DNA from: an uncultured Acidobacteriota bacterium
Lineage (GTDB): Bacteria > Acidobacteriota > Polarisedimenticolia > JACPZX01 > DASXTC01
Direction: 5' to 3'
Assembly (NCBI GenBank): GCA_963806495.1
Contig: CAWDYA010000007.1
Span: forward strand, 371,945 to 435,944
Length of the DNA: 64,000 bases
Shown here: positions 6,969-63,184 of the stretch, one piece after another
How the letters are laid out: the number at the start of each line of letters is the position of its first letter
How positions within the stretch are numbered: position 1 is the first letter of the stretch
The notes under the pieces: generated by a model
Database searches by the model: none
Seen by the model: the letters and a program-made list of their open reading frames with translations, nothing else
Told to the model about the DNA's origin: nothing
Program-made: the position numbers and the translations under genes

Positions 6969-6972
6969 TATA

Positions 6973-9207: not shown

Positions 9208-9360
9208 AAACTGCCCGACCATGGTGCGCCTGGCCGGACGGGGCGACCAGTGTGGAAGGCCCGGCCGGCGCGTTGGAAGGCCGCCGGCCGCCGGGGCAGG
9301 CGCATGCCGGCCGGGGCCGGCGCCCGGGGCATCCCGAGGTCTTCGCCGGGCGGCGCCAAG

Positions 9361-24816: not shown

Positions 24817-26861
24817 TCATTCGATGTAGCCGAGCGACTTCAGGGTGTCGAGAAGTTCCTCGTCCTTCTTGTCCCGATCGCTCGATGCGGTTCCGAGCGA
24901 ATTCACCAGGAAAGTCGTCGAGCCGGCCTGCGAGAAGCCTCAGCAGCTCGGGCTCGGCCGCGGACAAATCCCTCGTCTCGCCCGGATCCTCCTCGAGATC
25001 GTACAACTCGTACGCGTCGGGCGCCGAGGGGCCGAGAACCGTCCTCTCTCTGAAGCCCAGCAGTTCACTCGTCTTGATGTCGTCGGCCCCGAGAGCCGGA
25101 TCGATGCGCGTGGCCCTGGCATGGTCGTGGGGCACCAGGATCAGCTTGTACCGCCCGAGCCGGATCGAGCGCAGCTTGCCCGCCTCGCCCGGGATCGTGG
25201 GAAGGGGGTTCTGCGACAGATAGGACAGGTCCGACTCGCTGAAGATCTCGCGGTTGCCTATGTCACGGGAGGGCGTGCTCGCCTCCCGGAGAGAGCACCG
25301 CCGCGAGGCTCATTCCGTCGCGCTCCGACGCATATCCGATATCGAACATGTCGAGCAACGTCGGCGTGACGTCGATGAGGCTAACGGGCTCATCTATCTT
25401 GCGCCCGTCGGTCTGGCCCGGCAGATGGAACATCAGGGGGATATGCAGACTCTGCTGGTAGACACGGTCGCCGTGGGAGAAGAAGTACCCGTGCTCTCCG
25501 AGGCTCTCTCCGTGATCGGCCGTGACCACGAGAACTGTTCGCCCGCCGGCAGGCCCGTCGGTCGCGGCATCGACCAACCGTTTCACCTGATCGTCGAGAA
25601 AACGCACTTCCCCCGCGTACAGGGAGTCGAGGCGCTCCACCTCCTCGGCGGGCATCGTGTTGTGATGAATCACGTCGCCTATCGTGAGCTTCCCAGATTC
25701 GATCTCGTCGTAAACCGTGAGCGGCTGTCGGGGCGACGGGTCGACCTCATCGCGGTACGGCTCGGGCGGCTCATAGGTCCAGTGCGGGTCCAAGTAGTGG
25801 ACCCAGAGAAAGAACGGCCGGCCCTCGACCGCGTGAAGCATCTCGATCGCGCGGTCGGTGGTGACGTCGGCGACCTCGGACTGCGGGCGGGTGGTGTCAA
25901 AGCGATTGAGAAAGAAGGTCACGGCACGGGGGTGGAGCCTGGCGAGCAGGTCGAGAAGCACCAGGTGCTTGACCTGGCCGCGCAGGCCCAGCCTCCCCTG
26001 GTAGGTGTCGAAGCCCTGCGAGATGCCGCTGCCGCGATCGATGAGGCCGTTTGTCAGGACGGCCGCCGTGACCCACCCACGGCTCCGGAACTCCTCGGCC
26101 AGCGTCCGGTTCGACCAGGCGAGTGTCGAGAACAGGCTCTCGAAACCGTGACGATAAGTGTAGTCACCGGTCATCAGGGAGGAGATCGCCTGAGGCGTCT
26201 TGGGGATCGGCGTGGACGTGTCGAGGAACGCGAACGAACGAGAGGCCAGGGCGTCGAGGCCGGGCGTGCGCGATTTCTCGAGCCCGGGCGGGAGCTCGCC
26301 CTGCCCCCTGAAAGCGCCCAGGGCGTCGGCGCGCAGCGTATCGATCGTGATCAGCAGCACGCTGCGGGCCCCCTCGGGAGGCGTCGGCGCGCCGAGCGCC
26401 ATCCGCGCGCTCAGAAAGGCGGGCACCGAGATCGTCACGACGATCAGCAGTGAGGCGGCGACCCAGGAGATCCGAAGAGGAGCGGTACGCCGGGGCGCGA
26501 GCGCCGCGGTCGCGAGCAGGACGAGCGTCACCACGCCGAGCATCGTCCAGGTCGCTCCCGGGATCCCGAGAACCGGCTGGAGCGCCCGCGATCCTCCCCA
26601 CGCGAGCAACAGCGCCATCAGCGGGATCAGGGCGGTCGGGCCGACACCGAGGCGGCGGGCGAGCAGGGTCCCAGCGAGGAAACCGGCGACGGCGCCGTAC
26701 ACGGCGGCCAGGGCGATCCCCCACCAGGCGAACGTCAGCGAGTCGGCGCGGCTGTCATACAGCACGGGCGACCATCTGGCGAGCCAGATCGCCGCTTCGA
26801 CCGCGCCGAACGCGGCCATGACGAGGCAGGCCGCGGCCGCCGTGAGAAGGGGACGCTTCAC
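24817..26861 (-). CDS. Membrane-anchored sulfatase-like hydrolase/transferase, paralog 3 (two frameshifts)
   Basis: N-terminal 532 aa in ORF 25263..26861 ('LLITIDTLRADALG', 'HYLDPH', 'VTADHGE'). Continues in the frame of ORF 23978..25135 ('RYKLILVP...YELYDLEEDPGE'), then a third frame ending 'DTLKSLGYIE'. Frame changes near 25266 and 24905. Confidence 0.6.
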
Positions 26862-29000
26862 TCGAGTGACTCGACCGCGCGGGCAGCCGCCTCGAGCATC
26901 GGCTGCGCCGAAAGAGGCTCACCCACGGCCTGTCGCATCCAGACGTCGGGTGTGATCGAGCCCAGCCTGCAGATCCGCTCGAACTCGGGCCCGAGGGCGG
27001 GACTCTGCCTGAAGTGGCTCTCGATCTGGAAGGCGATCAGGTGCCCGAGCGGATAGTCGGGCAGATACAGCCCCGCGTCGATCATGTGCGAGTAGACGGC
27101 CAGTATCGGCACGTCCTTCACGCCGAACATCGCGGCGAAATGCCGGTTCCATACGTCCTGGGCGATGGACACGACGGCCTCGCGGAACCGTGCCGGGGAG
27201 GCGTCCGGGTGCTCGTATAGCCAGCGCCATGCCCCCATGTCGACGAGCGCCACGGCGGCGATCTCGCGGGTGGCCCAGAAGGTCTCCAGGGCCTCGAGAT
27301 TCTGCGAGTCGGCGTCCGGCCCGGAGAGGCCCAGAAGCTGCAGATCGCGCGACTGGAAGACGAAGGCGAGCGCCTCCGTGAACGCGGTGTTGGGGACGCC
27401 CTGGAGCAGGGTGTGATCGATCGACGTCACCGAGAAGACCTGTTCGACGTTGTGCCCCATTTCGTGCACGGCGATGTTGTAACCCTTGTAATCCATCCCC
27501 CCTGGTCCGACGCGGGTCCTCAGATGGGCGTCGTCGTCACGGCGGGTGGCTCCGAGCGCGTGGCCCGCGCCGCGCGACGGATCGACCGTGATGTGTTCGG
27601 CGAGGAATGCCGCCTGTTTCACGGTGAAGCCGAGCTCGCGGAACATCCGCGGCATATCGGCGGCATACGCCTCGGCGGTCGGGTACCGCTCGCGCGTGCG
27701 GGCGTCGAGCTCCGACTCGGAGTAGCGGCCCCGCGGCTTGAACCCGACGTACCATATGTCGAACGGCTCGAGAGGTCTGCCGAGCCGTCGCGCGATGAGC
27801 GCCGCGACGCGAGTGCCGAGCGGTGAGGAGAGCACCGACTCGAAGAGCTTCTCGACCTGCTTTTCCGGGATCTCGCGGTCGACGTTGAACCGGCGATCGA
27901 TGAAGGTCGGGTTGTCCGGGTGATACGGGATCCTCTCTACGCACCGCCTCGAACACCGCGATCCAGCGTCGGTAGCGCTCGTCCGGCTCGCGCGCCGTGT
28001 CCGCCACGGCACGTCGTCCCTCCGGCGCGGGCGTGTCCGGGATGGGCGACACCGCCACCGTGTTGGCGTAGGGATCCCAGTCCACGAGGGGGTTGTCGAT
28101 GGCCACGGCCGGTATCTCCTGCCGGACGATGCGTTCCATCACCTTCTGGATCATGCGCTGGCGGGCCAGGCCGTCAGGGTCGGCGTAGCGCGCCTTCAGC
28201 TCGTCGCGCAGCCCCCAGTGAGTGATGAGGCGGAGGCCTTCAGGGAACAGCCGCTGTCCGGAGTCGTCCAGCAGGTGATGCATGAAGATGTTGTACCCGC
28301 TGATGTACGTGTCCGCCGCCGCGAACGCCTCGGCGATCCGCTGGTTCACGTCGGCGGGAACGCGCGAGGAGAATTGCGCGGCGAGCCGTGTCTCGGCCCA
28401 GGCGCGGCGGCTCCAGGAGGCCCCATCGGTCATCCGCTGGTCCAGCGTGGTGAGAGGGAAGTTGAGCAGCACCACGAACGCCAGCTTGTTGCCGAACAGA
28501 TCCTCGGTGACATGGGCGCGAGGGGAGTAGGCGGCGAGGATGCGGTCCACCGGCAGGATCGGCCCGATGTCGAGATCCACGCCGCGGCGCAGGTCACGCT
28601 CCATCGAGGTGAGGTAGCCGCCAATCCGCTCGAAAGAGAACTCGAGCCGGTCGAAGGTGGCGTCGTACAGTTCGCCGCGGGGGATGAACTCGTCCTGGAG
28701 GAACCCGCGAAGCGCCTCCGCATCCCCGTCCGAGGGCCGCCACGCCCTGAGCACCTGCGCGACGCCCTGGTCGATCCGCGCCGCTTCCGCGGGGCCCGCC
28801 GTGTCATGAGCCGCGTGGAGCCGGCGCGCCGCCTGCTCCGCGGCCGCACTCCACGCGGCGCGGTCCTCATCGGGTGCGTCGGTCCTGCCGAATGACCACG
28901 AGGCCCCGGCGAGAAGCAGCCCCGAGGCGAGAGCGAGACGAATCGCTCCGCTGAGGAGCGGCGGAAGGACTGTTCCGAAGACGAGATGGTCGTGGTTCAT
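26858..29000 (-). CDS. Secreted zinc metallopeptidase (HEMGH motif; family unresolved, possibly M2-like) (frameshifted)
   Basis: N-terminal part in ORF 27537..29000 (signal-like start 'MNHDHLVFGTVLPPLL'); C-terminal part in ORF 26858..28012 with 'YNIAVHEMGHNVEQ'. Frames join near 27935-27942. Confidence 0.6.
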
Positions 29001-31648
29001 GGCAGCGTGGCCTCCTGCAGACCGGGAAGGTACAGGGCGTTGAACAGCAGCTTGAACGTCCGGTGAGTCTGCGCACGATGCTGGGCGCGCAGCCCGATGA
29101 GCACCACGCGGCCCTTGCCCACCGTCAGGTCGACGACGGCGGCCCGACGGCGCAGCCGGTCGGCCCCTTTCAGATAGCCGCTCACGAGGATCTGGTCGTC
29201 GTACTCGGGATACCTCGCAACCACGCGCCGCTCGAACCGCGCGTCGGGAAGCCGGGTCTGGAAGGCGGGGGACGTGGCGAAATAGCCGGCATCATCCGGG
29301 AGCATCCCGTATCCGATCGGGTTGTCGGTGTCGACGAGGATCCTCAGCATCGAACCGGGACAGTTGAACTGATCGCGGGTGACCTTCTGCAGGACGTTGG
29401 TCACGGGAAGGTCGAGAAGCTCGATCAGATAGTCGGCCGATGAGTCGAGCGCGACCACCGTGCCTCCCTGCTCGGTCACCCATTTCCTGATGGAGGCGCT
29501 GCCGTCCGGGTCGAGCCCGCCTGCGTATTCGGGCGGAAGGGGAGAGAAGGAGGCGCGCGCCGGTTCGGGCGGCTTGCCTTCCTTGATGATCTCCTTGTCC
29601 AGGTCCGGAAGCAGCAGGACGTCGATCCTGCCCGTGAACGCACCCGCGCGGATCTCCTCGTTCGAGAGGTTGACGTACGTGAACCCGTACTGCTCCAGCA
29701 GCCAGCGGGTCCATCCTTCGTCCATGCTCGCCATCCACGGCTTGTACAGGCCGACACGGACCGGCCGCACGGAGAAGGCCCGGCCGGAGGGGGCCCGGTC
29801 GAGCGGGCGGACCGGAAGATGCAGCTCCGCCGAGAGGCGGCCCAGCTCGGCCCCGCTCGCAGCCCCGGCAGCGATGTAGATGTCACCGGGCGTCGCGCCG
29901 TCGCGCAGCCAGTACACCCTTCGCTTTTCGGCCAGCAGGCGGTTGAGCGCCGTGTAGACACTGTCGGCCGCGTGCGGGATCATCCATCCGCCCGGCGCCT
30001 GCGTGACCGGCCCGCCCGGCCAGGCGGGCGCACGGATCGGCTCGAGACCCGCATCGGGCACCGGGCGCTGTAGCGGGACGACATCGACACCCATCGAGAT
30101 CGGCAGCGACCAGGAGGTCACGTCGTACGGCGGCAGGATGTCGCCGCCCGGCGCGCCCGACACCTCGGGGTAGCGCTGCGGCTCCAGCATGGTCAGGATG
30201 AACTGACGGAACGGCTGCGCCGCCGGTATCACGTAGGAGCCGGCCGGGTAAAGCGTGCGGGTCGCGACGCCGTCCGGGTCGGCCCGGCCCTCCTCCACGG
30301 ACAGCGGTGACGCGGCGATATCCACGCGAACGCCGTGACGCAGCAGCAGCTCAATCATCCCGGCCGCGGCCACCGGGTCGTGCTGGCCGGCCGGCACCAC
30401 GAAGCCGTACGGCGGCTCCGATCGGCCGCGCCGGATCGCCTTCGCTCCCAGGTCATGGAAGCTCTTCAGCAGATCGCTGCGGTACCGGGAGCAGGTCTCC
30501 AGGAGCGCGCGCGTGGCGATCAGCTCGTAGTCGATGATGTCACGCAGCCGCCACCATCCTCCCTCCCAGGGGGTGAGATAGTTGGCGCGGCGGGCGTACT
30601 CGGGCAGCCCCTTGACGCCGCCGCGCAGCTCTCCCGGCTCGATGTAGACCGGCGAGGCGATCCGCACGCTGGCGACCTCGGTCAGCAGCCCCACGATGTT
30701 CTTCCACCATGCGGTGTTGCGTGTTCCGCCTGGCCAGTAGCTGTCATAGATCATGTTGCTGCCCACCCCAGCCTTGCCGGCCTCCTCGAGGCGAAGCGCC
30801 ATCGTCGTGCCGATCAGGTCGGCGTGCCTCAGCACCATCGAATCGATTCCGGGGTCGACGGGGTCGGTCTGCGGCGGGACGAACATCCGCACGCTGCTGC
30901 CGCCCATCTGGTGCTCGTCGAGGAACACCTGCGGGTGCCAGTCGTGATACAGCACGTCGTTGACGACCCGGGTCTCCTTCTGCGTGAGCATGTAGAAGTC
31001 GCGGTTGTCGTCATGACCGACGTAGGGGTGATACAGCCACGGCATCGGCCCCCCCTCGTAGGGCGTGCCGAGATACCTGTCGTACCAGTCCACGACCATC
31101 ACCTGCCCGTCGGGATTGATGGAGGGCATGACGAGCAGGATGACGTCGTCGAGCCAGCGTTTCATGGACGGGTCGTCGGTCGTGGCCACCTGATACGCGA
31201 GCTCCATCGCCATCTGGGTCGAGCCGACCTCGGTCGAATGGATGCTGCAGGTGACGAGGACAATCACCTTCCCCTCGTCGATCAGACGGCTCGCCTCGCC
31301 GTCGGACAGACCCGCCGGATCCGCCAGGCGCGCCGCGATCCGTCTGTAGTGGTCGAGGTCCGCCTGGTTGCTCCGGGATGTCAGAACCACGAGCAGCATG
31401 TCGTTGCCGAGGGTCGACTTGCCCGCGAGCCGCACCGACACCCTGTCCGAGGCGTCGGCGAGCGCGTGCAGATAGGCCACCACCTTCGGGTAGGGAGCGA
31501 GATAACGGTCGGCGCCCACCTTTGCGTGGAGGAAGTCGTCCGGCGAAGGGATCCCGGCCGCCCACGCGTGCGGGGCGCCGAGCAGCAGGGCGGCCAGGAT
31601 CAGGCAGCGCGCCGTGCGCGTCAGCACGTGCCCGCCGGGCCGAGACAT
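28997..31648 (-). CDS. Peptidase M14 (zinc carboxypeptidase-like) family protein, secreted
   Basis: 883-aa C-terminal part of the 1823-aa track ORF, from 'MSRPGGHVLTRTARCLILAALLLGAPHAWA'; 'CSIHSTEVGS' HxxE-type motif. The upstream 940 aa of the track ORF is read-through and is excluded. Confidence 0.7.
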   Translation of the reverse strand: MSRPGGHVLTRTARCLILAALLLGAPHAWAAGIPSPDDFLHAKVGADRYLAPYPKVVAYLHALADASDRVSVRLAGKSTLGNDMLLVVLTSRSNQADLDHYRRIAARLADPAGLSDGEASRLIDEGKVIVLVTCSIHSTEVGSTQMAMELAYQVATTDDPSMKRWLDDVILLVMPSINPDGQVMVVDWYDRYLGTPYEGGPMPWLYHPYVGHDDNRDFYMLTQKETRVVNDVLYHDWHPQVFLDEHQMGGSSVRMFVPPQTDPVDPGIDSMVLRHADLIGTTMALRLEEAGKAGVGSNMIYDSYWPGGTRNTAWWKNIVGLLTEVASVRIASPVYIEPGELRGGVKGLPEYARRANYLTPWEGGWWRLRDIIDYELIATRALLETCSRYRSDLLKSFHDLGAKAIRRGRSEPPYGFVVPAGQHDPVAAAGMIELLLRHGVRVDIAASPLSVEEGRADPDGVATRTLYPAGSYVIPAAQPFRQFILTMLEPQRYPEVSGAPGGDILPPYDVTSWSLPISMGVDVVPLQRPVPDAGLEPIRAPAWPGGPVTQAPGGWMIPHAADSVYTALNRLLAEKRRVYWLRDGATPGDIYIAAGAASGAELGRLSAELHLPVRPLDRAPSGRAFSVRPVRVGLYKPWMASMDEGWTRWLLEQYGFTYVNLSNEEIRAGAFTGRIDVLLLPDLDKEIIKEGKPPEPARASFSPLPPEYAGGLDPDGSASIRKWVTEQGGTVVALDSSADYLIELLDLPVTNVLQKVTRDQFNCPGSMLRILVDTDNPIGYGMLPDDAGYFATSPAFQTRLPDARFERRVVARYPEYDDQILVSGYLKGADRLRRRAAVVDLTVGKGRVVLIGLRAQHRAQTHRTFKLLFNALYLPGLQEATLP

Positions 31649-32691
31649 CCCGCGAGCAGCCGGTGGAACTGGTGCACGCCGGCTTCCCGGGCGGGGGAGA
31701 ACCGACCGCGATCGTAGGTGCGGGAGGCCAGGCCCTTCTGCACCGCCTCGCAGATGGCGATGTCCTCGAGCTGGATGCCGTGGCTCGCCGCTACCGTGTG
31801 CTCGATCGAGGCACGCGCCTCGGGCGTGCCGGTCTCGAGGAAGTACCACTCGAAGATCGTCAACGTGCGATCGTGGCCGAGCGGCAGGATCAGGTTGGTG
31901 GAGAAGTTGTCCGGGTAGACGTTCAGCATCAGGTTCGGGAAGACCCAGAAGTAGAGCGCGCGGTCGTCGCCCTCGCGAAGCGGCGCGACCTGTACCGAGC
32001 CGAGGCCGAACGTCTCGGTCCGGTAGGCGTCGTAGTCGAGCCATCGGAACAGCTTCGGATGCACCACCGGGATGTGGTACCCCTCGAGGTAGTTGTCGAC
32101 GTATACCTTCCAGTTGCAGCGGATCTCGTAGTCGCGACGGCGTACCGGCTGCATACGGTCGAACGGCGTGTCCGGAGCGCGCTCCGCGACCGCATGCATC
32201 GTCTCTTCGAGAGGCCGGGCTGCCGGATCGAGGTTCACGAACACCAGCGGGCCCCAGACATCGGCCGCCGCAGGCGGAAGACGCACGCTCTTCGGGTCGA
32301 ACCGCTCGACCCCTTCGAACTCCGGGGTCCTGAGCAAGGCCCCGTCGAGGCCGTAGGTCCAGCCGTGATACCCGCACTGATGCGAGCGTCTGTTGCCGGA
32401 GCCGCAGGCCACCGGCCCGGCGCGGTGGCGGCAGACGTTCGACATCGCGCGAAGGCTCCCCCCGGCGTCGCGCAGCAGGAGCATCGGCTCGCCGGCGACC
32501 TCGGTGGTGAGATAGTCGCCGGCGGTCGAGAGGCTCCCGGCGTGGGCGGCGAGCTGCCAGCTGCGTCCGAACACGCGTTCCCGCTCGGCGGCCAGCGCCG
32601 AAGGATCGGTGTACCAGGTCGATGGGAGCGTCCGAGCCGCGGCGAGCCGGGGCTCGATCTCGGGCGGATCGGGCGGCTGATGGGGTGTCAT
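31621..32691 (-). CDS. Rieske [2Fe-2S] non-haem iron oxygenase alpha-subunit-like protein
   Basis: Start chosen at 'MTPHQPP'; Rieske motif 'CRHRAGP...CGYHGW'. Confidence 0.75.
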   Translation of the reverse strand: MTPHQPPDPPEIEPRLAAARTLPSTWYTDPSALAAERERVFGRSWQLAAHAGSLSTAGDYLTTEVAGEPMLLLRDAGGSLRAMSNVCRHRAGPVACGSGNRRSHQCGYHGWTYGLDGALLRTPEFEGVERFDPKSVRLPPAAADVWGPLVFVNLDPAARPLEETMHAVAERAPDTPFDRMQPVRRRDYEIRCNWKVYVDNYLEGYHIPVVHPKLFRWLDYDAYRTETFGLGSVQVAPLREGDDRALYFWVFPNLMLNVYPDNFSTNLILPLGHDRTLTIFEWYFLETGTPEARASIEHTVAASHGIQLEDIAICEAVQKGLASRTYDRGRFSPAREAGVHQFHRLLAGCLGPAGTC

Positions 32692-32782
32692 GGCGGCGGG
32701 ATTGTACCACGCGGGAGCGCACGTCTCGCCTATACTGCGACGGTCGAGCCCGGCACGGCCCGGTACCGGAAAAGGGGGTTCC

Positions 32783-34072
32783 ATGAGGCATGCCATCCGA
32801 CGTTCGGCCGCGGCGATGCTCCTGATGCTGCCAACGTGCGCCGCCGTGCTCGCGGCCGAAAGCGCCGTCGACCATTACAGAAAGGCCGTAGCCGCCTACA
32901 AGGCGGGCGACTTCGAGGGGTATCGCGCGTCGATCGCCGAGGCAGTGCGACTCGCGCCGGATCATCCGGCCTACGTGTTCGATCTCGCCGGGGCCGACGC
33001 TCTGACCGGGCGACCCGTCGAGTCGATCGCGGCCCTGCGGCGTCTGGTGGAGATGAAGGTCTGGCAGGACGTGGAGGTCGAGCACGACCTCGATCCGATC
33101 CGTGGCACGCCGGAGTTCCGCGACGTCGCGGCCGATCTGGCTGCGCTGAAGAGGCCGATCGGTACGAGCGTGAAGGCGTTCCGCCTGCGCGAGAGAGACT
33201 TCATCCCCGAAGGGATCGCCTACGACCCGGACACCCGTTCGTTCTTCGTGGGAAGCGTGCATCTCGGCAGGATCGTGAGAGTGGATCGCAAAGGCCGGGA
33301 GACCGGCTTCACGCGGGACGGTGAGGCGGGCGTCTGGTCGATCCTGGGGATGGCCGTGGACACACCTCGCAAGCTCCTGTGGGCTTGCACGAGCGGCATG
33401 GCGGAGACGGCGAACCTGGCGGCGCCCGACAAGGGAAGGGCCTCTCTGCTGAAGCTGGATCTCGCCACGGGAAAGCTCCTCGCACGCTATCCGCTCGCGG
33501 GCGGGCAGCCGGAGCACAACTGCAACGATCTGGCCATCGGGCCCAAAGGCGACGTGTATGTCTCGGACGCCATCTCTGGGCAGATCCTGCGTCTGGCCCC
33601 CGGTGGCGCGGGGCTGACGGAGTTCGTGCCCGCCGGGCGGCTGCGCTCGCCCCAGGGGCTGGCCTTCTCCGCCGACGGCCGGTATCTGTTCGTCGCGGAC
33701 TACGCGAGCGGCCTGCACCGGCTCGCACCGCCGGATGCGGAGCCGCTGAGGCTGGAACAGCCTGCCGGCATGTCGGGTCGTGGCATCGACGGGCTTTTGT
33801 TCTTCGAGGGCTCCTTGATCGCCATCCAGAACGGCGTGCGTCCGCACCGTGTGGTGCGCCTGCATCTCGACGCCGGCATGGCGCGGATCGAGCGGGCGGA
33901 GATCCTGGAGATGAACAACCCGCACTTCGATGAGCCGACGCTCGGCGTGATCGTGGGCCGGGATTTCTTCTACGTGGCCAACAGCCAGTGGAGCCGGTTC
34001 GAGCCCGATGGCACGATCTTCCCGATGGACCGGCTCGAGCGGCCGGTCGTGCTGAAGCTGCGGCTGGACTGA
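32783..34072 (+). CDS. Secreted beta-propeller protein (SMP-30/gluconolactonase/strictosidine-synthase-like) with N-terminal TPR-like region
   Basis: Start chosen at 'MRHAIRRSAAAMLLMLPTCAAVLA' (signal peptide); repeated 'GIAYDPD', 'NDLAIGPKGDVYVSD', 'GLAFSADGRYLFVAD' blade motifs. Confidence 0.6.
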   Translation: MRHAIRRSAAAMLLMLPTCAAVLAAESAVDHYRKAVAAYKAGDFEGYRASIAEAVRLAPDHPAYVFDLAGADALTGRPVESIAALRRLVEMKVWQDVEVEHDLDPIRGTPEFRDVAADLAALKRPIGTSVKAFRLRERDFIPEGIAYDPDTRSFFVGSVHLGRIVRVDRKGRETGFTRDGEAGVWSILGMAVDTPRKLLWACTSGMAETANLAAPDKGRASLLKLDLATGKLLARYPLAGGQPEHNCNDLAIGPKGDVYVSDAISGQILRLAPGGAGLTEFVPAGRLRSPQGLAFSADGRYLFVADYASGLHRLAPPDAEPLRLEQPAGMSGRGIDGLLFFEGSLIAIQNGVRPHRVVRLHLDAGMARIERAEILEMNNPHFDEPTLGVIVGRDFFYVANSQWSRFEPDGTIFPMDRLERPVVLKLRLD

Positions 34073-34085
34073 GCGGGCCGGCGTC

Positions 34086-35054
34086 TCACATCGCGGGATA
34101 GCGCTCGTACAGGGAGCCGGGCAGGTCGGAGTAGCGCACCATTCCCGGTGTGGTGAGGACGTCACCTCCCTCGGTGATGAGCACCCCCTCGACGCCGACC
34201 CGCTCGAGATGCTCCATGCCTTTCTCGGGGCCGAGCAGGAACGAGGCGGTGGCGGCGAGCCCGGCCCGGAACGCGTCCGGGGCCAGAGTCGTGCTCGCGG
34301 CCACGCCCCGTGCGGGCCAGCCGGTGCGGGCATCGAGCAGATGGTGGTACCGGACGCCGTCACGGAGAAAGAATCGCTCGTAGTCGCCGGAGGACGCGAC
34401 CCCGCCATCCCACACCATCCGGACGGAGAATCGGCATCGGGTGCGGATGCGAGGGTCGAGCACGCCAATTCGCCAGGGCTTGCCGTCGCCGCGCGCGCCC
34501 ATGGTTCGGATGTCGCCCGCGAGGTTCACCACCGCCGACTCGACCCCCTCCTGCCGGAGACGGTCGGCCACACGATCGGCCGCGTACTCCTTGCCCACGC
34601 CGCCGAGATCCAGCTCCATCCCCTCGCGTCTCAGGAAAACCGTCCCGTTGCGTACCGACACCTGACGGTAGTCGACCAGGGGCAGGAGCGCGTCGACCTC
34701 GGCGGGGGAGGGGACGCGCTGGTGCCTGAAGTCCCAGACCCGCCGCAGCACCCCGACCGTCGGGTCGAAGGCGCCGCCGGTGTCGGCGGCAAGGGCGAGC
34801 GCCTGCCCGACCAGCGCCACGGTCTCTTCGTCGACCGCCACGGGGGTGCGGCCGGCGTTGATGTTGATCCGGCCGATGACGCTCGATGCGATGTAGCGGG
34901 AGAACTTGCGCTCGATCCGGTCCGCCTCGTTCATCGCCGCGGTCGCCACGGCCTCGGCGTGCCGCTCGCCGCGATCGTCGACGAAGCGAAGCAGGCCCCA
35001 GCTCCCCATCGCCCGGAACCACTTGTTGTACAGAGCGCGGTCGGCGGCGGCCAT
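34086..35054 (-). CDS. FAD:protein FMN transferase (ApbE family)
   Basis: 322 aa; ApbE-like throughout ('FDPTVGVLRRVWDF', 'LGGVGKEYAADR'). Confidence 0.8.
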   Translation of the reverse strand: MAAADRALYNKWFRAMGSWGLLRFVDDRGERHAEAVATAAMNEADRIERKFSRYIASSVIGRININAGRTPVAVDEETVALVGQALALAADTGGAFDPTVGVLRRVWDFRHQRVPSPAEVDALLPLVDYRQVSVRNGTVFLRREGMELDLGGVGKEYAADRVADRLRQEGVESAVVNLAGDIRTMGARGDGKPWRIGVLDPRIRTRCRFSVRMVWDGGVASSGDYERFFLRDGVRYHHLLDARTGWPARGVAASTTLAPDAFRAGLAATASFLLGPEKGMEHLERVGVEGVLITEGGDVLTTPGMVRYSDLPGSLYERYPAM

Positions 35055-35055
35055 A

Positions 35056-36270
35056 TCAGAACTTGAACCTGAGGCCGACAGTGGCGGTCAGCGTCTGCAG
35101 GTCGGCCGGAGAGACGCTGCTCGAGCCGCCCCCTTCGTTCTCGTTTTCGTTCTCCAGGGACGTGACCGGAGGCTTGAGCAGCAGCGTGGGCGTGCCGAGC
35201 GGGCGCACCCGGTCCAGCCCGGTCTGGTCGGCGTAGGTGGCCTCGAACATGACCGACACCCGGTCGCTCACCTCCACCGTGAGCCCGATACCGGCCAGCC
35301 AGCTCCAGAACGAGGACAGCCGGTAGTCGCCGCTCATGTACGGCTGCGGGGTGGAGAACTCGTAGCCGAAGAACTCCGCAGCGCTCTGTCTGTAGTAGCG
35401 CAGCCGGGGCGTGACGATCACCTTGTCGCCGACCCGCTGATCGAAGGTGAGGTCGATGGTGTGGGCGCGGATCGACCAGTCGTCCCAGTAGTAGCGGTAG
35501 CTGGTCTTGAGCGCGCCGCGTGTCGTGAAGTAGTGACCGAACTTGATCACCGCGCTCTTGCGGCTGCGCGTGTCGGGGCGCACCTCGGGGACGCTCGTGT
35601 TCGGGTCGAGGGTCACCCGCTTGTACGGGTCCGTGAGATACCCGTTGAGCTTGTCGAGCCCGAAGGAGAAGTCGACGAGGTCCCTGGGGCCGAGGATCTG
35701 GGTCCATCCGATCGAGTACGAGTCGCTGCTCTTGGTGAAGCTGTCGTTGGTGCCGACCGGGTCGATCTGGTCGCGCGTGATACCGATCCCCCCGTGCAGG
35801 GTCGAGCGCCCGCCGAACAGATCCAGTGAATCCACCAGTGACACGCCGCGCGACAGGTAGTCCGACTCGTGCGAGTAGCTCAGCGTGATCGATGGAAGCT
35901 GGGAGCCGAACCGCTTCGAGTACGAGCCGGTGATCGCCTGGCGCGTGTCGGTGTACTGGGCCTTGGGGATGCTGCTCGACGAGGACGACGAGGCGCTCGC
36001 CGTGGCGTCCATCGTCGGCATCTCGCCGGTGGGCGATGCGCCCGAGATCGAGTCATAGGAGAGGAGCAGGCCGAACTGTCCCTTCTCCCCGAAGTCCTGG
36101 AGCATGTAGATCTCGGGGTTGCTGACCTGGGTCCGGCCGTCGCCTTCCTTGTAATGCAGGAAGCGGAAGTCCACGGTGGTATCGGCGCGGGCCGTCGAGC
36201 CGGCCAGGGCCCCGATGCCGGCGGCGAGCAGCCCGAGATTGCGTCCCGCCTTGCCGTCAGTTGCAGCCAC
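35056..36270 (-). CDS. DUF3570-like outer-membrane beta-barrel protein
   Basis: 404 aa; signal-like N-terminus, Ser/Thr/Tyr-rich alternating pattern, C-terminal 'LRFKF'. Its position between a DUF4266-like gene and ApbE matches a neighbourhood I recall for DUF3570. Confidence 0.6.
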   Translation of the reverse strand: MAATDGKAGRNLGLLAAGIGALAGSTARADTTVDFRFLHYKEGDGRTQVSNPEIYMLQDFGEKGQFGLLLSYDSISGASPTGEMPTMDATASASSSSSSSIPKAQYTDTRQAITGSYSKRFGSQLPSITLSYSHESDYLSRGVSLVDSLDLFGGRSTLHGGIGITRDQIDPVGTNDSFTKSSDSYSIGWTQILGPRDLVDFSFGLDKLNGYLTDPYKRVTLDPNTSVPEVRPDTRSRKSAVIKFGHYFTTRGALKTSYRYYWDDWSIRAHTIDLTFDQRVGDKVIVTPRLRYYRQSAAEFFGYEFSTPQPYMSGDYRLSSFWSWLAGIGLTVEVSDRVSVMFEATYADQTGLDRVRPLGTPTLLLKPPVTSLENENENEGGGSSSVSPADLQTLTATVGLRFKF

Positions 36271-37012
36271 AGCCGCCCCCCGAGACGCCTCCGTTGCCCG
36301 CGGCGCCCTCCTTGCTCGCGTGGATGTGCTCGCGCATCGAGCGGGTCAGCATGTCACCGTCCAGGCTCATGATCGGGTCGGCCAGATAGCCGCGCTGCCA
36401 CGCCCGGAGGTTCCCGTTCGGCCCCTTGCGCTTGCCACCGGCCTCGGAGGCGGAGGCGGGGAGCACGTCGCCGTGCAGATAGGCATCGAGCGCCTCCTCC
36501 GTCTGCCCGTGAACCGTCTCGGTGCCTCCCTCGAACCGGGCGATCTCGCGCCCGTCGGGACCGAGCAGCACCGATGTGGGCATCGCCGCGACCGCGAACA
36601 CCTCGCCGCCTTTTCCTGACGGGTCGCGCCCCACGAGGAAGGTGGTGGGCGGAAACGAGGTGATGAAGTCGTACACAGCGTCATCGTCGGTCTCGAGCGA
36701 CACCGCGATGACCTGCAGCCCTTCGGGGTGGTATCGGGCGGCGAGCGTATCGAGCCACGGGAATCCCTTGCGGCAGGGGATGCACCAGGAGGCCCAGAAC
36801 TCCAGCAGGACGGGCTTGCCGCGAAACTCGGCCAGCGTGTGGGTCCCGCCCCTCATGTCCGTGAAGCTGAAGTCGGCAGGGAGAGCAGGCTCGGTGTCGG
36901 CCGTTGCGGAAAGGGCCGGCGCCGGGGAAGGGGGCGTCGCGGGAGCGGCGCCGAGCAGCGAGAGCATGCACAGGAGCGCCGGGTAGAGACGTCGTCGTGA
37001 GCCGGATGTCAT
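36257..37012 (-). CDS. TlpA-like thioredoxin fused to a C-terminal DUF4266-like module
   Basis: 251-aa C-terminal part of ORF 36257..37975: signal 'MTSGSRRRLYPALLCMLSLLGAAPA', thioredoxin 'EFWASWCIPCR', then a ~70-aa tail ending 'GNGGVSGGGCGCN'. The N-terminal 320 aa of the track ORF is artefact. Confidence 0.65.
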   Translation of the reverse strand: MTSGSRRRLYPALLCMLSLLGAAPATPPSPAPALSATADTEPALPADFSFTDMRGGTHTLAEFRGKPVLLEFWASWCIPCRKGFPWLDTLAARYHPEGLQVIAVSLETDDDAVYDFITSFPPTTFLVGRDPSGKGGEVFAVAAMPTSVLLGPDGREIARFEGGTETVHGQTEEALDAYLHGDVLPASASEAGGKRKGPNGNLRAWQRGYLADPIMSLDGDMLTRSMREHIHASKEGAAGNGGVSGGGCGCN

Positions 37013-37216
37013 CGGGTTCCCTCGAAGGTTGGGCGGGGTATCATCGTCGCTCATCAGCCAGGTCACGACCGTCAGACACCCGGCGGGGCCGGTTTCCTTC
37101 GCGCGACAGGCAGAAGATGTTTGGCCGGGATTCGGGGGCGGCGGGACGGCGCCTCCGCCCGGCGCCGGCGCGGGGCCGCACGCAGGAAGCCGGAACCCGC
37201 GTGCTAGAATCCCGGC

Positions 37217-40189
37217 ATGTCGAGGCTCCGTATCCTGCTGATGGTGGCGGTCTTGGCGACCGCCGCCTACCTCGTTTCGAGCGTCACGCGGGTCCCTTCC
37301 GATCAGATCGCGGTGCGGGAGAGCCTGCTGTCCGGCGGGCCGCCGACCGTGGTGGGGGCGGGATGGCGGTTCGTGCCCCGGGGGCTCTACCGCCTCACGC
37401 GATATCCGGCGGGGCCGGCGTCGTTCGCGTTCGGGCAGGACGAGCCGTTCCAGCTCGTCACGCCCCAGGGTGCGAAGGTCGTCGGGGCCGGGACGCTGAG
37501 CTACCGGGTCGAGCCGGAGGATGCGGCGGCCCTGCACGCGCGCTGTGGCGGCCGTCTCGAGACCTGGCTCCTGGATCGCGTCCGCGCGGCGCTCACCGAG
37601 GTGCTGTCGCGGCCCGGGCTCTCTCCGCTTACGGCGTCGAAGATCCCGGACGTGGAGGCCGCAGGCCTGAAGATCCTCGAGGACTCGGCGGGCGGCGACG
37701 GGCTGCGGATCGACGGGATGCGTCTGGACCGACTCGGCTACGAAGGGGCCGCGGTCGCCGCCGCCCCGCGCGCCACCGTGCGGCGCAGGATGATCTGGTT
37801 CGCTGTCGACTCGTTCGACTGGAAGATCGCACGCCCTCTCATCGAGGCGGGCCGGATGCCGAACCTCAAGCGACTGATGGACGAGGGGGCCTGGGGAAAT
37901 CTGCGGACGATCGTGCCGATCCTCTCGCCCGTGGTCTGGACCTCGGCGGCCACCGGCAAGCGACCGGAGAAGCACGGCATCATCGACTTCGTCGCCAGCG
38001 ATCCGAAGACCGGGGCGCTGGTGCCCGTCACCAGCTCGCTGCGAAAGGCGCGCGCGTTCTGGAACATCCTCAGCGACGGCGGCGTCTCGGTGGGCGTGGT
38101 GGCGTGGTGGGCGAGCTTTCCGGCGGAGAAGGTGGACGGATTCATCGCAACCGACCGGATTCGTACCAGCTGTTCAAGAACCAGGTCACGAAGGAGGAGT
38201 CGTCCGACGACCCGTTCAAGACGTATCCGGCCGATCTGTACCCGACGATCTCCCCGCTGATCACGGCGCCGGCCTCGATCACCGAGAAAGACCTCTCACG
38301 TTTCATCGACATGAAGCGCTACGCCTCGCGATTCTCGGCCGACGACGAGGACCGCGTGCACGAGTTCGCCACCGCGGTGGCGGCATCGAGGACCTACACA
38401 GCCATCGCCAAGAAGCTGTTCGAACAGCGTCCGACCGACCTCAGGGTGGTCTATTTCGAGGGGCCGGACGAGGCCTCGCACCTGTTCATGCCGTTCGTCC
38501 CGCCGCCCGTCAGCACCGTCGATGCGAGCAAGGCCGCGTGGTTCGGGGGCGTCGTGGACGCGTACTACGTCTACCAGGACGAGCTGATCGGTCAGCTGCT
38601 CGACGCGTTCGCCGACGACGACACCACGATCCTCGTCTCCTCCGATCACGGTTTCAAGATTCGGAGACGACCGGCCGCAGACCGAGTCCCGCATCAGCCA
38701 CGGCAAGGCCGCCGACTGGCACTCTCCCGACGGGATGATCGTTCTCGCCGGCAGGGACATCAAGAAGGGCACCCGCATCCTCAACGCCAACGTGCTCGAC
38801 ATCGTCCCGACGCTTCTCTACCTGTACGGGATGCCGGTCGCCGAGGACATGGACGGCAAACCGTTGACGATGGCGCTGACCGAGGACTTTCTCGCGGCTC
38901 ACGAGCCCTCGCAGGTGGCGACGTATGAAACCGGCGAGGCGGAACCGGCGCCGGAGCTCGACTACGCCTCGGAGGAGGGTAAGGAGGCGATCGAGAAGCT
39001 GCGCTCGCTCGGCTACATCGAGCAGGATCAGCCCTCGGCGCATCTCAACCAGGGCGCCGTCTACATGCAGACCGGCGAGTACGACAAGGCGATCGAGGGG
39101 TTCAGGACGGCGCTGCAGAAGATGGACGACCCGGACGTGCGCCTCGCCCTCGCCCGCGCGTACCGGCTGAGCCACAAGCCCGAGCAGGCCGCCGAGCAGC
39201 TCGACATCCTGATGAAGCGCGGCTGGAAGGAGGCGCGGGTGTACAACGAGATGTCGCTGCTGCGGCGGGATCTGAGGGACTACAAGGGAGCCGAGGCCCT
39301 GCTGAAGCGCGCGCTTTCGTCCGACCCGAAGTACGACGAGGCGCAGCTCAACATCGGCCGGTTGTACGCCGAGGAGTCGCGGTGGGACGACGCGCTGGCC
39401 GCCTTCCAGCGCGCCCTGGAGCTGGACCCCAGCTCGGGCGAGACCTACAACCAGATCGGCGTCGTGCTCAAGAAGCTGGGCCGGACCGATGAGGCGATCG
39501 CCTCGCTGGAGAAGGCGATCAAGGTCGCGCCCGATATCACGGGGCCCTACAACAACCTCGGCATCATCTACCGGGAGACCGGGCGGATGGACAAGGCACT
39601 CGAAGTGCTCGAGCTCGGCACGACGATGGCCCCCAAGAATGCGATGCTTCGCAACAGCCTGGCCTCGCTTTACTACGCTCAGGGCGACGTGGACAAGGCG
39701 GTCGCGCAGCTCGAAGCCGCCGTGCAGGGCGAGCCGGACCACATCGGCTCGCTGTCCAACCTGGTCAGTATCAACATGGCCAGGCACAACCCGGCCGACG
39801 CGGAGAAGTACCTGCGGCGCCTGCTGGAGTTGCAGCCGGGAAACGACCAGCTGCAGCTCTCGCTTGCGCTGGTGCTCTCGGACCAGAAGAAGTTCGACGA
39901 GTCGCGGCGGATGCTCAACGTCCTGCTCGCGAAGAACGCGCGCGACCCCGCGGCGCTGATGATCCTCGGGGAGGTGGAGCTCGCAAGCGGCAACCCCGCC
40001 GAGGGGGCGAAACGGTTCGAGCAGTCGAGCGCGATCGACACGAAGAACCCGCGCGTATGGAACGGCCTGGCGAAGTGCTACCTGGCGCTGGGGCGCAAGG
40101 ACGACGCCCGGCAGGCGATGCGGCGGTCGCTCCAGGCGGACCCGAAGCAGCCCGAGGTGGGGAGGAAGCTCGCCGAGCTCGGGGGCTAG
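37217..40189 (+). CDS. Alkaline-phosphatase-superfamily (type I phosphodiesterase-like) protein fused to C-terminal TPR repeats (two frameshifts)
   Basis: Three track ORFs: 37217..38260 ('WFAVDSFDW', 'PNLKRLMDEGAWGNL'), the middle of 36904..38928 ('ILVSSDHGF') and 38735..40189 (TPR repeats). Frame changes near 38155 and 38660; the first and last segments share a frame. 'LRSLGYIEQ' sits at the catalytic/TPR boundary. Confidence 0.6.
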
Positions 40190-41495: not shown

Positions 41496-41571
41496 GGGCC
41501 GTTAGCTCAGTCGGTAGAGCATCTGCCTTTTAAGCAGAGGGTCGCTGGTTCGAGTCCAGCACGGCTCACCA
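41496..41571 (+). tRNA. tRNA-Lys (anticodon TTT)
   Basis: 76 nt with encoded CCA; cloverleaf with 7-bp acceptor stem GGGCCGT/ACGGCTC (one G-T pair), anticodon stem TCTGC/GCAGA and loop CTTTTAA, T-loop GGTTCGAGTCC. Confidence 0.85.
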
Positions 41572-44852: not shown

Positions 44853-44930
44853 GTCCCCATCGTCTAGCCAGGCCTAGGACACAGCCCTTTCAAGGCTGCA
44901 ACACGGGTTCGAATCCCGTTGGGGACGCCA
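44853..44930 (+). tRNA. tRNA-Glu (anticodon TTC)
   Basis: 78 nt with encoded CCA; acceptor GTCCCCA/TGGGGAC, anticodon loop CTTTCAA; very close to the canonical bacterial tRNA-Glu sequence. Confidence 0.85.
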
Positions 44931-61802: not shown

Positions 61803-63184
61803 GTGCTGGCGGGAGCCGGCGCGGCGCTGCTGACGGGTGTCGCCCTGTACGCCGTTGCGGTGGAGCCCTGGACCGTGATCGAGACCGATGTCTCGATCCC
61901 GCTGACCGGCCTGCCCGGTCCGCTGGCCGGTTACAGGATCCTTCTCCTATCGGACTTCGAGGCGGACGCTCCCGGAACGCGCGAGCGTCAGGTGGCGGCG
62001 ATCGCCGCGCGCGCGCGTCCCGATCTGATCCTGGTGGCGGGGGACCTCGTGGACAAGGGTATCCATGGCAAGCCGAGGGTTCGGGCATACGGGAAGATGG
62101 CGGCGTACCTCGGCGGCCTGCCGGCGCCCGACGGCGTCTGGTTCGCGCAGGGGCACGGAGAGAGCGCCTCGAGGATCGACGAGGAGGATCTGCTGCGCGC
62201 TCTGGAGGCGGGCGGCGTGCATCCGCTCCTCAACGAGGTGGCCTTCATTCAAAGAGAGGGCGCCTCGCTCGCGCTGATCGGCGTACGGATCCACGACTAC
62301 GCGGGGAAGGGGAAGTGGACGGTGGGACACGACGGCGTCATCACGGAGGGCCCGGGCAACCGGGAGTCCTACGTGGAGTACCGCGAGCCGGGGTGCGCGG
62401 CGTGGAGAGACTATGAGCTCAGCGGCAGGATGCGTTTCGGGAGCCCCCACGACTGGGCCGGCTTCCTGGTGCACAGCCGGCTGGGAAAGCGGGAGGACCG
62501 TTTCTACTTCGGTGTCCGTCGTGACTATCTGCCCTACCTCGGGGTCTCGGCGCACGGCACCGTCTACACCAGCGGCACCTTCACGCGGGCCGAGCAGATG
62601 AGCGCCGGCGTCTGGCACCGTTTCCACGCGAAGGTGGAGACCACCAACGCGGGCGTCCGTTTCCGGGCGCGGGCGTGGCGGGAGACCGAGAGCGAGCCCG
62701 AAGGGTGGGATTTCGACTATCTCGACGCCACCGACACCCGGATCGAGTCGGGCACCGTCGGCCTGTACGGCGAGGGGCCCGGAGTCAAGACCTTCTCCGA
62801 CCTGAGGATCACGGCGGGGGACGGGACCGGGCGCTGGGAGGAGCCGAAGGGCGCGGACTTCCTCATGGGCCTGCTCTCCCGGGTGCCCGAGGGGACACCG
62901 GCGATCGTGCTTTCCCACACGCCCGATATCTACGAGGACGCGGCCGAGCTGGACGTGCCGCTGACGCTTGCGGGCCACACACGGGGGGGCAGATCCGACT
63001 GCCGTTCTTCGGCCCGATCGTCGTCGACACGAGCGTGGGGCGCGACAGGGCTTCAGGGCTCTCCGGTCGCAACGGGCGTTTCCTCTATGTGACCCGGGGT
63101 ATCGGCACCAGCCGGCTGCCTGCGCGTTTCCTCGCGCCGCCCGAGGCCACGGTCATCACGCTGACGGGCGACCGCGATGACTAG
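61803..63184 (+). CDS. Membrane-anchored metallophosphoesterase (calcineurin-like) (frameshift at a G7 run)
   Basis: ORF 61743..63092 holds 'ILLLSDFEAD', 'LILVAGDLVDKG', 'LAGHT'; ORF 62675..63184 holds the continuation 'GGQIRLPFFGPIV'. The join is a run of seven G at about 62953-62959; one more G restores 'LAGHTRGGQIRLPFFGP'. Start GTG at 61803 is tentative. Confidence 0.6.

Follow-up and report, generated by a model that had tools for sequence, protein, structure and literature searches.

What does an ApbE flavin transferase do in an operon with a predicted outer-membrane protein and a thioredoxin, and is the joining of that thioredoxin to a DUF4266 module genuine? Both questions are raised by a three-gene locus in an uncultured Acidobacteriota bacterium (GenBank assembly GCA_963806495.1, contig CAWDYA010000007.1), which we analysed within a stretch of 64,000 nucleotides, here called the window. 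Three co-directional open reading frames (ORFs) occupy positions 34086-37012 on the minus strand in the order thioredoxin-DUF4266 fusion, DUF3570 and ApbE, with the strand agreeing with an earlier account made from the letters alone (the sequence-only reading). That account had described three overlapping genes, which is correct for the fusion and DUF3570 genes, with 14 nucleotides (nt) in common (36257-36270), but not for the DUF3570 and ApbE genes, which only abut with a 1-nt spacer (TGA T ATG). The three genes are a self-contained operon, with the following features.

36257-37012, minus strand: gene for the fusion protein, a secreted thioredoxin-DUF4266 polypeptide of 251 amino acids (ORF, Pfam matches and architecture of homologues)
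36500-36880, minus strand: thioredoxin-fold domain of the fusion protein, residues 45-171, TlpA/ResA/CcmG-like (Redoxin, PF08534, E = 4.3e-15)
36773-36784, minus strand: active-site CxxC, C77-I-P-C80, within WCIPC (residues 76-80), read from the sequence
36260-36406, minus strand: DUF4266 module, residues 203-251 (PF14086, E = 6.7e-20, 72 bits against a cut-off of 27)
36263-36271, minus strand: C-terminal Cys-Gly-Cys (C248, G249, C250), a putative redox-cycling CXC shuttle, from the sequence
35056-36270, minus strand: DUF3570 gene, 404 amino acids (PF12094, E = 4.5e-63)
36034-36054, minus strand: flavinylation motif 1 of DUF3570, D73-S-I-S-G-A-S79, matching [S/T]GA[S/T]; the predicted acceptor of flavin mononucleotide (FMN) is S79, at the end of strand 3
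35989-36009, minus strand: variant motif 2 of DUF3570, a candidate site, D88-A-T-A-S-A-S94, in the loop between strands 3 and 4 (clade consensus D-x-T-T-S-A-S)
34086-35054, minus strand: gene for an ApbE-family FAD:protein FMN transferase (FAD, flavin adenine dinucleotide), 322 amino acids (PF02424, E = 5.4e-78)
37013-37216: 204-bp intergenic region, divergent, upstream of the operon; GAGGGAA, 5 nt from the ATG, resembles a Shine-Dalgarno sequence

The ensemble is not new, and is a 'hybrid thioredoxin-like/flavinylation' envelope electron-transfer system in compact form. Starting from orphan apbE genes, Méheust et al (2021; eLife 10:e66878, PMC8238504) described clusters of ApbE, DUF3570, a thioredoxin-like protein and DUF4266 with its CXC (the 'DsbD systems' of their Figure 4D). 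DsbD accompanies about 220 of these clusters and is missing from 316, and the authors considered the function of the cluster uncertain. In that study, DUF3570 from Chlorobium luteolum was flavinylated on co-expression with its cognate ApbE, the only pair for which this has been demonstrated, and flavinylation was abolished only when both of the conserved [S/T]GA[S/T] serines were mutated. The CXC of DUF4266 was considered a possible redox-cycling site (PMC8238504). DUF3570 is thereby an experimentally shown ApbE substrate family, beyond the mere co-occurrence with ApbE mentioned in the sequence-only reading, and the small envelope redox relay that this reading had thought plausible is the model already published for such clusters (PMC8238504).

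The window has all four modules of the published system, the target motif in DUF3570, the C-terminal CXC of DUF4266 and a matching gene order, and it lacks a co-located DsbD, as do the 316 published clusters. It differs in three respects. The thioredoxin and DUF4266 form one polypeptide, with loss of the lipoprotein signal and lipid anchor of DUF4266; the second motif of DUF3570 reads S-A-S rather than G-A-S; and the thioredoxin is of the Redoxin/AhpC-TSA type (PF08534/PF00578), where the paper lists PF13899, a family that in the loci inspected here belongs to DsbD itself. The fusion, and the barrel fold and leaderless ApbE described below, are absent from the main text of the 2021 paper, in which the word 'barrel' appears nowhere, and a term search of three of its supplementary files gave no mention of PF14086, PF12094 or Acidobacteria. 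We found no later characterisation of the ApbE/DUF3570/thioredoxin/DUF4266 system in the post-2021 literature, and a term search of a 2025 review of ApbE (PMC12052999) gave no sign of a thioredoxin/DUF3570-type system. The operon is a clade-specific architectural variant of the published system, found mostly in Acidobacteriota metagenome bins.

The fusion protein begins with an N-terminal hydrophobic leader (MTSGSRRRLYPALLCMLSLLGAAPA) and comprises a signal peptide or anchor (residues ~1-30), a Pro/Ala-rich linker, the thioredoxin domain, a linker of ~30 residues and the DUF4266 tail. AhpC-TSA, Thioredoxin_8 and Thioredoxin match the same domain as Redoxin. The DUF4266 module contains the motifs W-x-R-G-Y-L-A-D-P-I-M and H-x-H-x-S-K-E and ends in a Gly-rich C terminus, GGGCGCN, followed by the stop codon. 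Pfam and the sequence agree with the proposal that a secreted TlpA-like thioredoxin with WCIPC is fused in frame to a DUF4266 module ending in GGGCGCN, and the family assignments proposed for DUF4266 (PF14086) and for DUF3570 (PF12094) both stand. In an AlphaFold2 (AF2) model of the fusion protein, the predicted local distance difference test (pLDDT) score exceeds 90 over residues ~45-180 and is 37-60 in the tail. The low confidence of the modelled tail fits a segment that would become ordered only upon docking to a partner.

The thioredoxin domain scores far below the NCBIfam cut-offs for TlpA (75.8 against 230), ResA (82.5 against 170) and DsbE (48.5 against 123). On sequence grounds it belongs to the fold superfamily as a TlpA-like protein, without being orthologous to TlpA, ResA or DsbE. 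With TlpA from Bradyrhizobium, ResA from Bacillus and CcmG/DsbE it shares the fold, WCxPC, the cis-Pro 'MPT' loop and an N-terminal signal or anchor, and it differs from them in its DUF4266 tail and in lacking a cytochrome-c-maturation or Cox context. Its nearest solved relatives in a sequence search of the PDB are 3gl3 ('putative DsbE', E = 4e-22), TlpA (1jfu) and ResA (4nmu). The sequence of 3gl3, an uncharacterised structural-genomics entry named 'putative thiol:disulfide interchange protein DsbE', closely resembles the thioredoxin of an unfused Chlorobiaceae cluster (L032, described below), and the structure of the thioredoxin partner of an ApbE/DUF3570 system may thus already have been solved unrecognised.

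A lost stop codon or an indel could in principle have merged a thioredoxin gene and a DUF4266 lipoprotein gene, making the fusion an artefact of assembly or annotation. The window, which has a guanine-cytosine (GC) content of ~68%, seems to be frameshifted elsewhere, with one Phosphodiest domain spread over three reading frames (37208-40189). The ApbE genes of two related long-read contigs (L027 and L028) are frameshifted as well, one 'fusion' in the protein database (P0246) is clearly a frameshift read-through, and another (P0330) retains an internal lipobox. Against these points stands the recurrence of the join. A search with the fusion protein against 5.8 billion proteins gave 536 matches. 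One is an identical copy of the window protein (P0001), and those with names come from Candidatus Polarisedimenticolia, Thermoanaerobaculia and Acidobacteriota. The best 120 of the 536, from many independent samples and sources (JGI, ENA, NCBI and Logan assemblies), all combine PF14086 with thioredoxin-type Pfam domains and are mostly 216-290 amino acids long. In an alignment of 50 sequences with 46-85% identity to the window protein (mean column identity 43%), W76, C77, P79, C80 and G245-N251 are invariant, as are W205, R207, L210-A-D-P213, M215 and S233-K-E235 in the DUF4266 part, and neither the junction nor the linker retains a remnant of a signal peptide or lipobox. Further, the two genes of unfused loci overlap by 4 nt and are read in different frames, and DUF4266 there has its own leader of ~25 residues; one indel alone would not give the protein of the window. 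The architecture shared by the 120 best matches and the invariance of WCxPC and GGGCGCN in the 50 aligned sequences exclude a lost stop codon as the cause of the fusion, and we consider an artefact extremely improbable. The sequence-only reading had asked whether the fusion recurs in other genomes. It does so on many other contigs with the same operon, and the five contigs L027-L031 all have the same gene order of fusion, DUF3570 and ApbE.

The fused form is a minority architecture. A HMMER scan with the 61-residue tail against 1.84 billion cluster representatives gave 486 proteins, and only ~7 of the best 150 are long fusions, the others having 47-159 and mostly 62-126 amino acids. A profile of the standalone DUF4266 matched at least 7,798 proteins, and the best 120 listed are all 67-107 amino acids long. 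A scan of contigs with the fusion protein alone (L001-L026) gave generic TlpA-like thioredoxins only, mostly from Bacteroidota, with no DUF3570, ApbE or DUF4266 tail.

Three unfused loci were inspected, from Chlorobiaceae (L032), Roseateles sp. BYS78W (L033) and a metagenome contig (L034). They contain a thioredoxin of the Redoxin/AhpC-TSA type (165-171 amino acids), DUF4266 (72-82 amino acids), DUF3570 and ApbE, in this order, followed in L032 and L033 by a full-length DsbD, and they resemble the window in gene order, domain families, the DUF4266/DUF3570 overlap and the leaderless ApbE. The thioredoxin domain of the window is 32-42% identical to the partner thioredoxins of these loci. In the unfused loci the thioredoxin and DUF4266 genes overlap by 4 nt or adjoin, so that the fusion unites genes that are neighbours. 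Where DUF4266 stands alone, it is a lipoprotein of 70-90 amino acids with a lipobox cysteine in all 29 examined, none of which has Asp at position +2, and with a P-W-E-K/R-G motif within a few residues of that cysteine. The fusion thus replaces the lipid anchor of the CXC module by a covalent link to the protein that is presumably its redox partner.

Other fusions place the same modules alongside DsbD_N. A secreted standalone DsbD_N gene lies directly upstream of the fusion gene in L028 and L030, and one protein (P0245) is a triple fusion of DsbD_N, Redoxin and DUF4266, confirmed with Pfam. The tails of P0292/P0307, P0376 and P0330 are 58-78% identical to standalone DUF4266, compared with 50-56% to the window clade. 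These identities, although they come from short sequences, suggest independent fusion events. Together, the thioredoxin-DUF4266 and DsbD_N-thioredoxin-DUF4266 fusions constitute Rosetta-stone evidence for a thiol order that runs from DsbD_N to thioredoxin to CXC.

Two of the unfused loci have peculiarities of their own. The Chlorobiaceae locus (2251-10625 of L032) contains two tandem thioredoxin-DUF4266-DUF3570 modules and three DUF3570 paralogues, with one shared ApbE and one DsbD. Two of the three paralogues have an extra N-terminal [IV][ST]GAS motif and may carry three flavins. In the Roseateles locus (4293-7004 of L033), a 903-amino-acid ORF with immunoglobulin-like domains has the cluster thioredoxin as its C-terminal part. 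The same ORF has an internal hydrophobic segment that is rich in Gly and Ser, contains Cys and precedes RRRRQ, and the gene for an Rce1-like (CPBP) protease lies just upstream. This arrangement matches the JDVT-CTERM neighbourhood noted by Haft (bioRxiv 10.1101/2023.06.07.544157).

The overlap between the fusion and DUF3570 genes links the CXC directly to the start of the next protein. The GTG start codon of DUF3570 (36268-36270) sits within the Cys-Gly-Cys codons of DUF4266 (tGTGgctgcaacTGA; TGT GGC TGC AAC TGA). The window, L027-L031 and the unfused locus L033 all keep the embedded GTG, which is thus shared by Acidobacteriota-type and Roseateles loci, and the 14-nt overlap with GTG inside the CGC codons was found at seven of the ten CGC-coding sites examined. 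Because the gene overlap dictates these residues, the N terminus of DUF3570 is fixed as V-A-A-T-D/E. An embedded start of this kind, which implies translational coupling, suggests that DUF4266 and DUF3570 work together, possibly as a complex. A scan of 33800-37400 revealed no sigma-70-type promoter consensus, and its only terminator-like hairpin lies on the opposite strand.

DUF3570 is predicted to be a flavoprotein of the outer membrane. It has a Sec-type signal peptide (residues 1-29, ...STARA|DTT), its structure model is a closed antiparallel outer-membrane β-barrel of 16 strands, and its C terminus (...GLRFKF) ends in an aromatic residue, all as expected of an outer-membrane barrel. An ApbE target motif, which the sequence-only reading had suggested seeking in neighbouring proteins, is present in DUF3570 itself (DSISGAS, with S79), and the segment D73-S-I-S-G-A-S79-P80 is conserved among 52 homologues, with D73, G77, A78, S79 and P80 invariant. 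The second motif follows 15 residues after the first; its A93 and S94 are invariant in the same homologues, and the Roseateles locus L033 has a second site, 'SSAS', similar to the ASAS of the window. Both predicted FMN sites are in or at one long loop of the barrel model, in which residues 89-97 have a pLDDT below 50. If the N terminus is periplasmic and strands 127-135 and 138-151 are a single strand, the long loops 81-102, 296-320 and 352-390 of the model would be extracellular, S79 would lie at the outer end of strand 3, and S94 would lie within the next loop, of 22 residues. Mature DUF3570 lacks conserved cysteines, with 43 of the 52 homologues devoid of any cysteine after residue 30, and therefore FMN is the only predicted redox centre of the barrel.

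The ApbE that would install this FMN has no evident means of leaving the cytoplasm. It aligns to TM1553 (1vrm, E = 1.4e-46) with the GGVGKEYA and SSGDYERFF...YHHLLDARTG motifs intact, and to further ApbEs of solved structure. Its ORF starts with MAAADRALYNKWFRAMGS, 15 residues ahead of the ApbE fold, and cannot be extended, being preceded by an in-frame stop 12 codons ahead of the ATG. By inspection, neither a signal peptide nor a lipobox is present on ApbE in any of nine loci, fused and unfused (the window and L027-L034). Most ApbEs are lipoproteins active in the periplasm, although a cytosolic ApbE is known from Klebsiella pneumoniae, where it flavinylates a soluble fumarate reductase (PMC12052999). 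The sequence-only reading had ApbE installing covalent FMN on extracytoplasmic proteins. As to the substrate this is borne out, since the DUF3570 family is an ApbE substrate, but a periplasmic site of installation is not obvious for an enzyme that lacks an export signal in nine loci. Given a leaderless ApbE and a substrate family with a Sec leader and an outer-membrane fold, the most economical interpretation is that flavinylation occurs in the cytoplasm and that export of the modified, unfolded chain follows. Export of DUF3570 by Tat, considered as an explanation of cytoplasmic flavinylation, was rejected, as the leader has a single Arg and the alignment has no conserved twin-arginine.

In L027 (9900-11061) and L028 (9800-10929), the ApbE genes each have one frameshift ~50 codons in. 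The frameshifts are probably assembly indels, and with them gene callers give a truncated ApbE of 244-250 amino acids.

The best explanation for the operon is a reductive relay, that is, the published model refined for the fused form, and we regard it as reasonably probable. In this relay, ApbE would move FMN from FAD onto Ser79 of DUF3570, and possibly onto Ser94, sites predicted from the motif in a family shown to be a substrate. After export by Sec, DUF3570 would insert into the outer membrane as the modelled barrel of 16 strands, its flavinylated loop lying on the barrel or inside it. A membrane reductase of the DsbD/CcdA type, encoded elsewhere in the genome, would keep the thioredoxin domain reduced, as the linkage to DsbD and DsbD_N in relatives suggests. 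The WCIPC dithiol could then reduce the Cys-Gly-Cys disulfide at the C terminus of its own chain, on the flexible, Gly-rich DUF4266 tail, and the tail could hand two electrons to the barrel-bound FMN, from which they would pass to an acceptor at or beyond the outer membrane. That the thioredoxin and DUF4266 parts act on each other is indicated by their fusion, on Rosetta-stone grounds.

By analogy, the DUF4266 tail would act as a swinging arm that shuttles a disulfide, as the C-terminal CXC tail does in the flavin thiol oxidase Erv2, but reductively. In Erv2, a C-terminal CXC forms a shuttle disulfide beside the flavin (PMC4019985), and the eukaryotic Erv2 and QSOX share with the window system a flexible terminal CXC or CXXC that shuttles between a thioredoxin-type partner and a flavin (PMC4019985), with QSOX also fusing a thioredoxin domain to its flavin module. 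The likeness is functional, without homology. The flavin of Erv2 and QSOX is a non-covalent FAD in a helical bundle, whereas the window system would have a phosphoester-linked FMN on a β-barrel and an electron flow that is probably opposite, and it lacks the flavin-proximal CXXC of Erv.

Several points weigh against the reductive relay. Its electron source, a DsbD-type reductase, is assumed, and we infer the direction of electron flow, the contact between the Cys-Gly-Cys and FMN, the outer-membrane location and the acceptor. Within the 64-kb window, Pfam searches of the neighbouring genes and of ORFs rich in transmembrane segments gave no DsbD, CcdA or DsbD_N, tblastn gave no match to DsbD_N in the window, and no DsbD adjoins the operon in the five fused-type loci (L027-L031). 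The second flavinylation motif (ASAS) deviates from [S/T]GA[S/T] at two positions. Finally, an ApbE without an export signal places flavinylation in the cytoplasm, ahead of Sec export of an FMN-bearing chain, for which we found no published precedent.

The absence of DsbD from the window and from the surroundings of the operon in all five fused-type loci would also suit electron flow in the oxidative direction. In that case O2, quinones or an external acceptor would keep the FMN oxidised, FMN would oxidise the Cys-Gly-Cys, the Cys-Gly-Cys would oxidise the thioredoxin, and the thioredoxin domain would make or isomerise disulfides in the envelope, giving an outer-membrane analogue of the Erv2/QSOX sulfhydryl oxidases. 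CXC disulfides are relatively oxidising, with a value of about -167 mV for a CGC peptide. The combination of a thioredoxin domain, a shuttle CXC and a flavin is the architecture of QSOX and Erv (PMC4019985). We nevertheless think the oxidative direction unlikely, because the family as a whole is linked to DsbD, a dedicated supplier of reductant (~220 clusters, PMC8238504; also L032 and L033), because relatives of the fused clade have DsbD_N either next door or as part of a fusion, and because the characterised WCxPC domains of the TlpA/ResA/CcmG type are reductants. A role in metal handling is more doubtful still. Here the GGGCGCN tail would be a thiolate site for Cu(I), Fe or a similar metal, kept reduced by the TlpA-like domain, and DUF3570 would be a metal-reducing or metal-passing outer-membrane channel. 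TlpA keeps the copper chaperone ScoI reduced, and TlpA is among the nearest solved relatives of the thioredoxin domain. Faint Pfam matches to Copper-bind and CopC near the Chlorobiaceae cluster, TonB-dependent receptors near L028, and an ArsP_2 'heavy-metal exporter' 6 kb away in the window point the same way. These metal-related neighbours, however, differ from locus to locus and have unrelated genes between them and the operon, and no protein of the operon resembles a known metallochaperone or transporter, while the covalent flavin and the link to DsbD favour electron transfer. The metal hypothesis is also compatible with the reductive relay, of which the reduction of a metal could be the terminal step.

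A bolder form of the reductive relay, which we put forward only tentatively and judge unlikely, would make DUF3570 a haem-free electron conduit of the outer membrane. One or two phosphoester-linked FMNs in the loop between strands 3 and 4 would be installed in the cytoplasm by the leaderless ApbE, the modified protein would be exported by Sec, and it would be fed from the periplasmic side by the Cys-Gly-Cys arm. A comparison can be drawn with the porin-cytochrome conduits of the MtrCAB type, in which MtrB is a 26-strand barrel that sheaths a decahaem cytochrome. DUF3570, with 16 strands in the model, its own covalent FMN and no haems, might hypothetically transfer electrons across the membrane. 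If so, the DsbD thiol pathway would be coupled to redox chemistry at the cell surface by an arm that is tethered to thioredoxin here and to a lipid anchor in other clades.

For experiments, the fused form offers a simpler, three-protein version of the system for reconstitution, and the fusion pattern, the barrel fold and the leaderless ApbE make its mechanism easier to test. An outer-membrane-barrel substrate with a leaderless, dedicated ApbE may matter more than the fusion itself. If both hold, flavinylation takes place before export, which is directly testable.

The operon is bounded by genes on the opposite strand, and the window also contains two tRNA genes, the only Rfam or ARAGORN matches within it.

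32681-34072, plus strand: SGL/TPR gene, convergent, bounding the operon
37208-40189, plus strand: phosphodiesterase-TPR gene, divergent, bounding the operon
41496-41571, plus strand: tRNA-Lys(TTT) (Rfam/ARAGORN)
44853-44930, plus strand: tRNA-Glu(TTC) (Rfam/ARAGORN)

Further neighbours encode an M14 peptidase, a Rieske dioxygenase, a DAO oxidoreductase, a Cys/Met pyridoxal phosphate (PLP) enzyme and ArsP_2, and the remainder of the window is ordinary chromosomal DNA with histidine utilisation genes, purA, glycosyltransferases, sulfatase-family membrane proteins and a polysaccharide cluster. A functional tie of the operon to the M14 peptidase, Rieske dioxygenase, SGL/TPR, phosphodiesterase-TPR, DAO or ArsP_2 genes was considered and rejected, as these are divergent or convergent to it and vary between loci.

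Among the other genes, the phosphodiesterase-TPR gene on the plus strand at 37208-40189 has a single type I phosphodiesterase domain (PF01663) across three frames. Profile positions 2-115 match in 37208-38260, positions 135-222 in 38104-38928, and the C-terminal part, together with a long TPR array, in 38588-40189. The three frames imply two frameshifts, and the gene is either a pseudogene or affected by assembly indel errors. On the minus strand, an ORF of 1823 amino acids (28997-34468) is an artefact of high GC content that overlaps real genes on both strands, including that for ApbE. The real gene within it is confined to the 3' part, from 28997 to ~31600, and encodes a secreted M14 carboxypeptidase-like protein. 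Three paralogous membrane proteins (6706-9207 and 9208-11583 on the plus strand, in tandem, and 25263-26918 on the minus strand) have five to six N-terminal hydrophobic segments followed by a Sulfatase/Phosphodiest domain, a layout like that of lipoteichoic acid (LTA) synthases and phosphoethanolamine transferases. At the edge of the window, an ORF on the plus strand that runs off its end (63165-63998) adjoins the polysaccharide-synthesis cluster (Polysacc_synt_2, GNVR and PMT_2). It has ~8 hydrophobic segments, five cysteines and no Pfam match at E ≤ 1e-5, and could encode a protein like Wzy or an O-antigen ligase.

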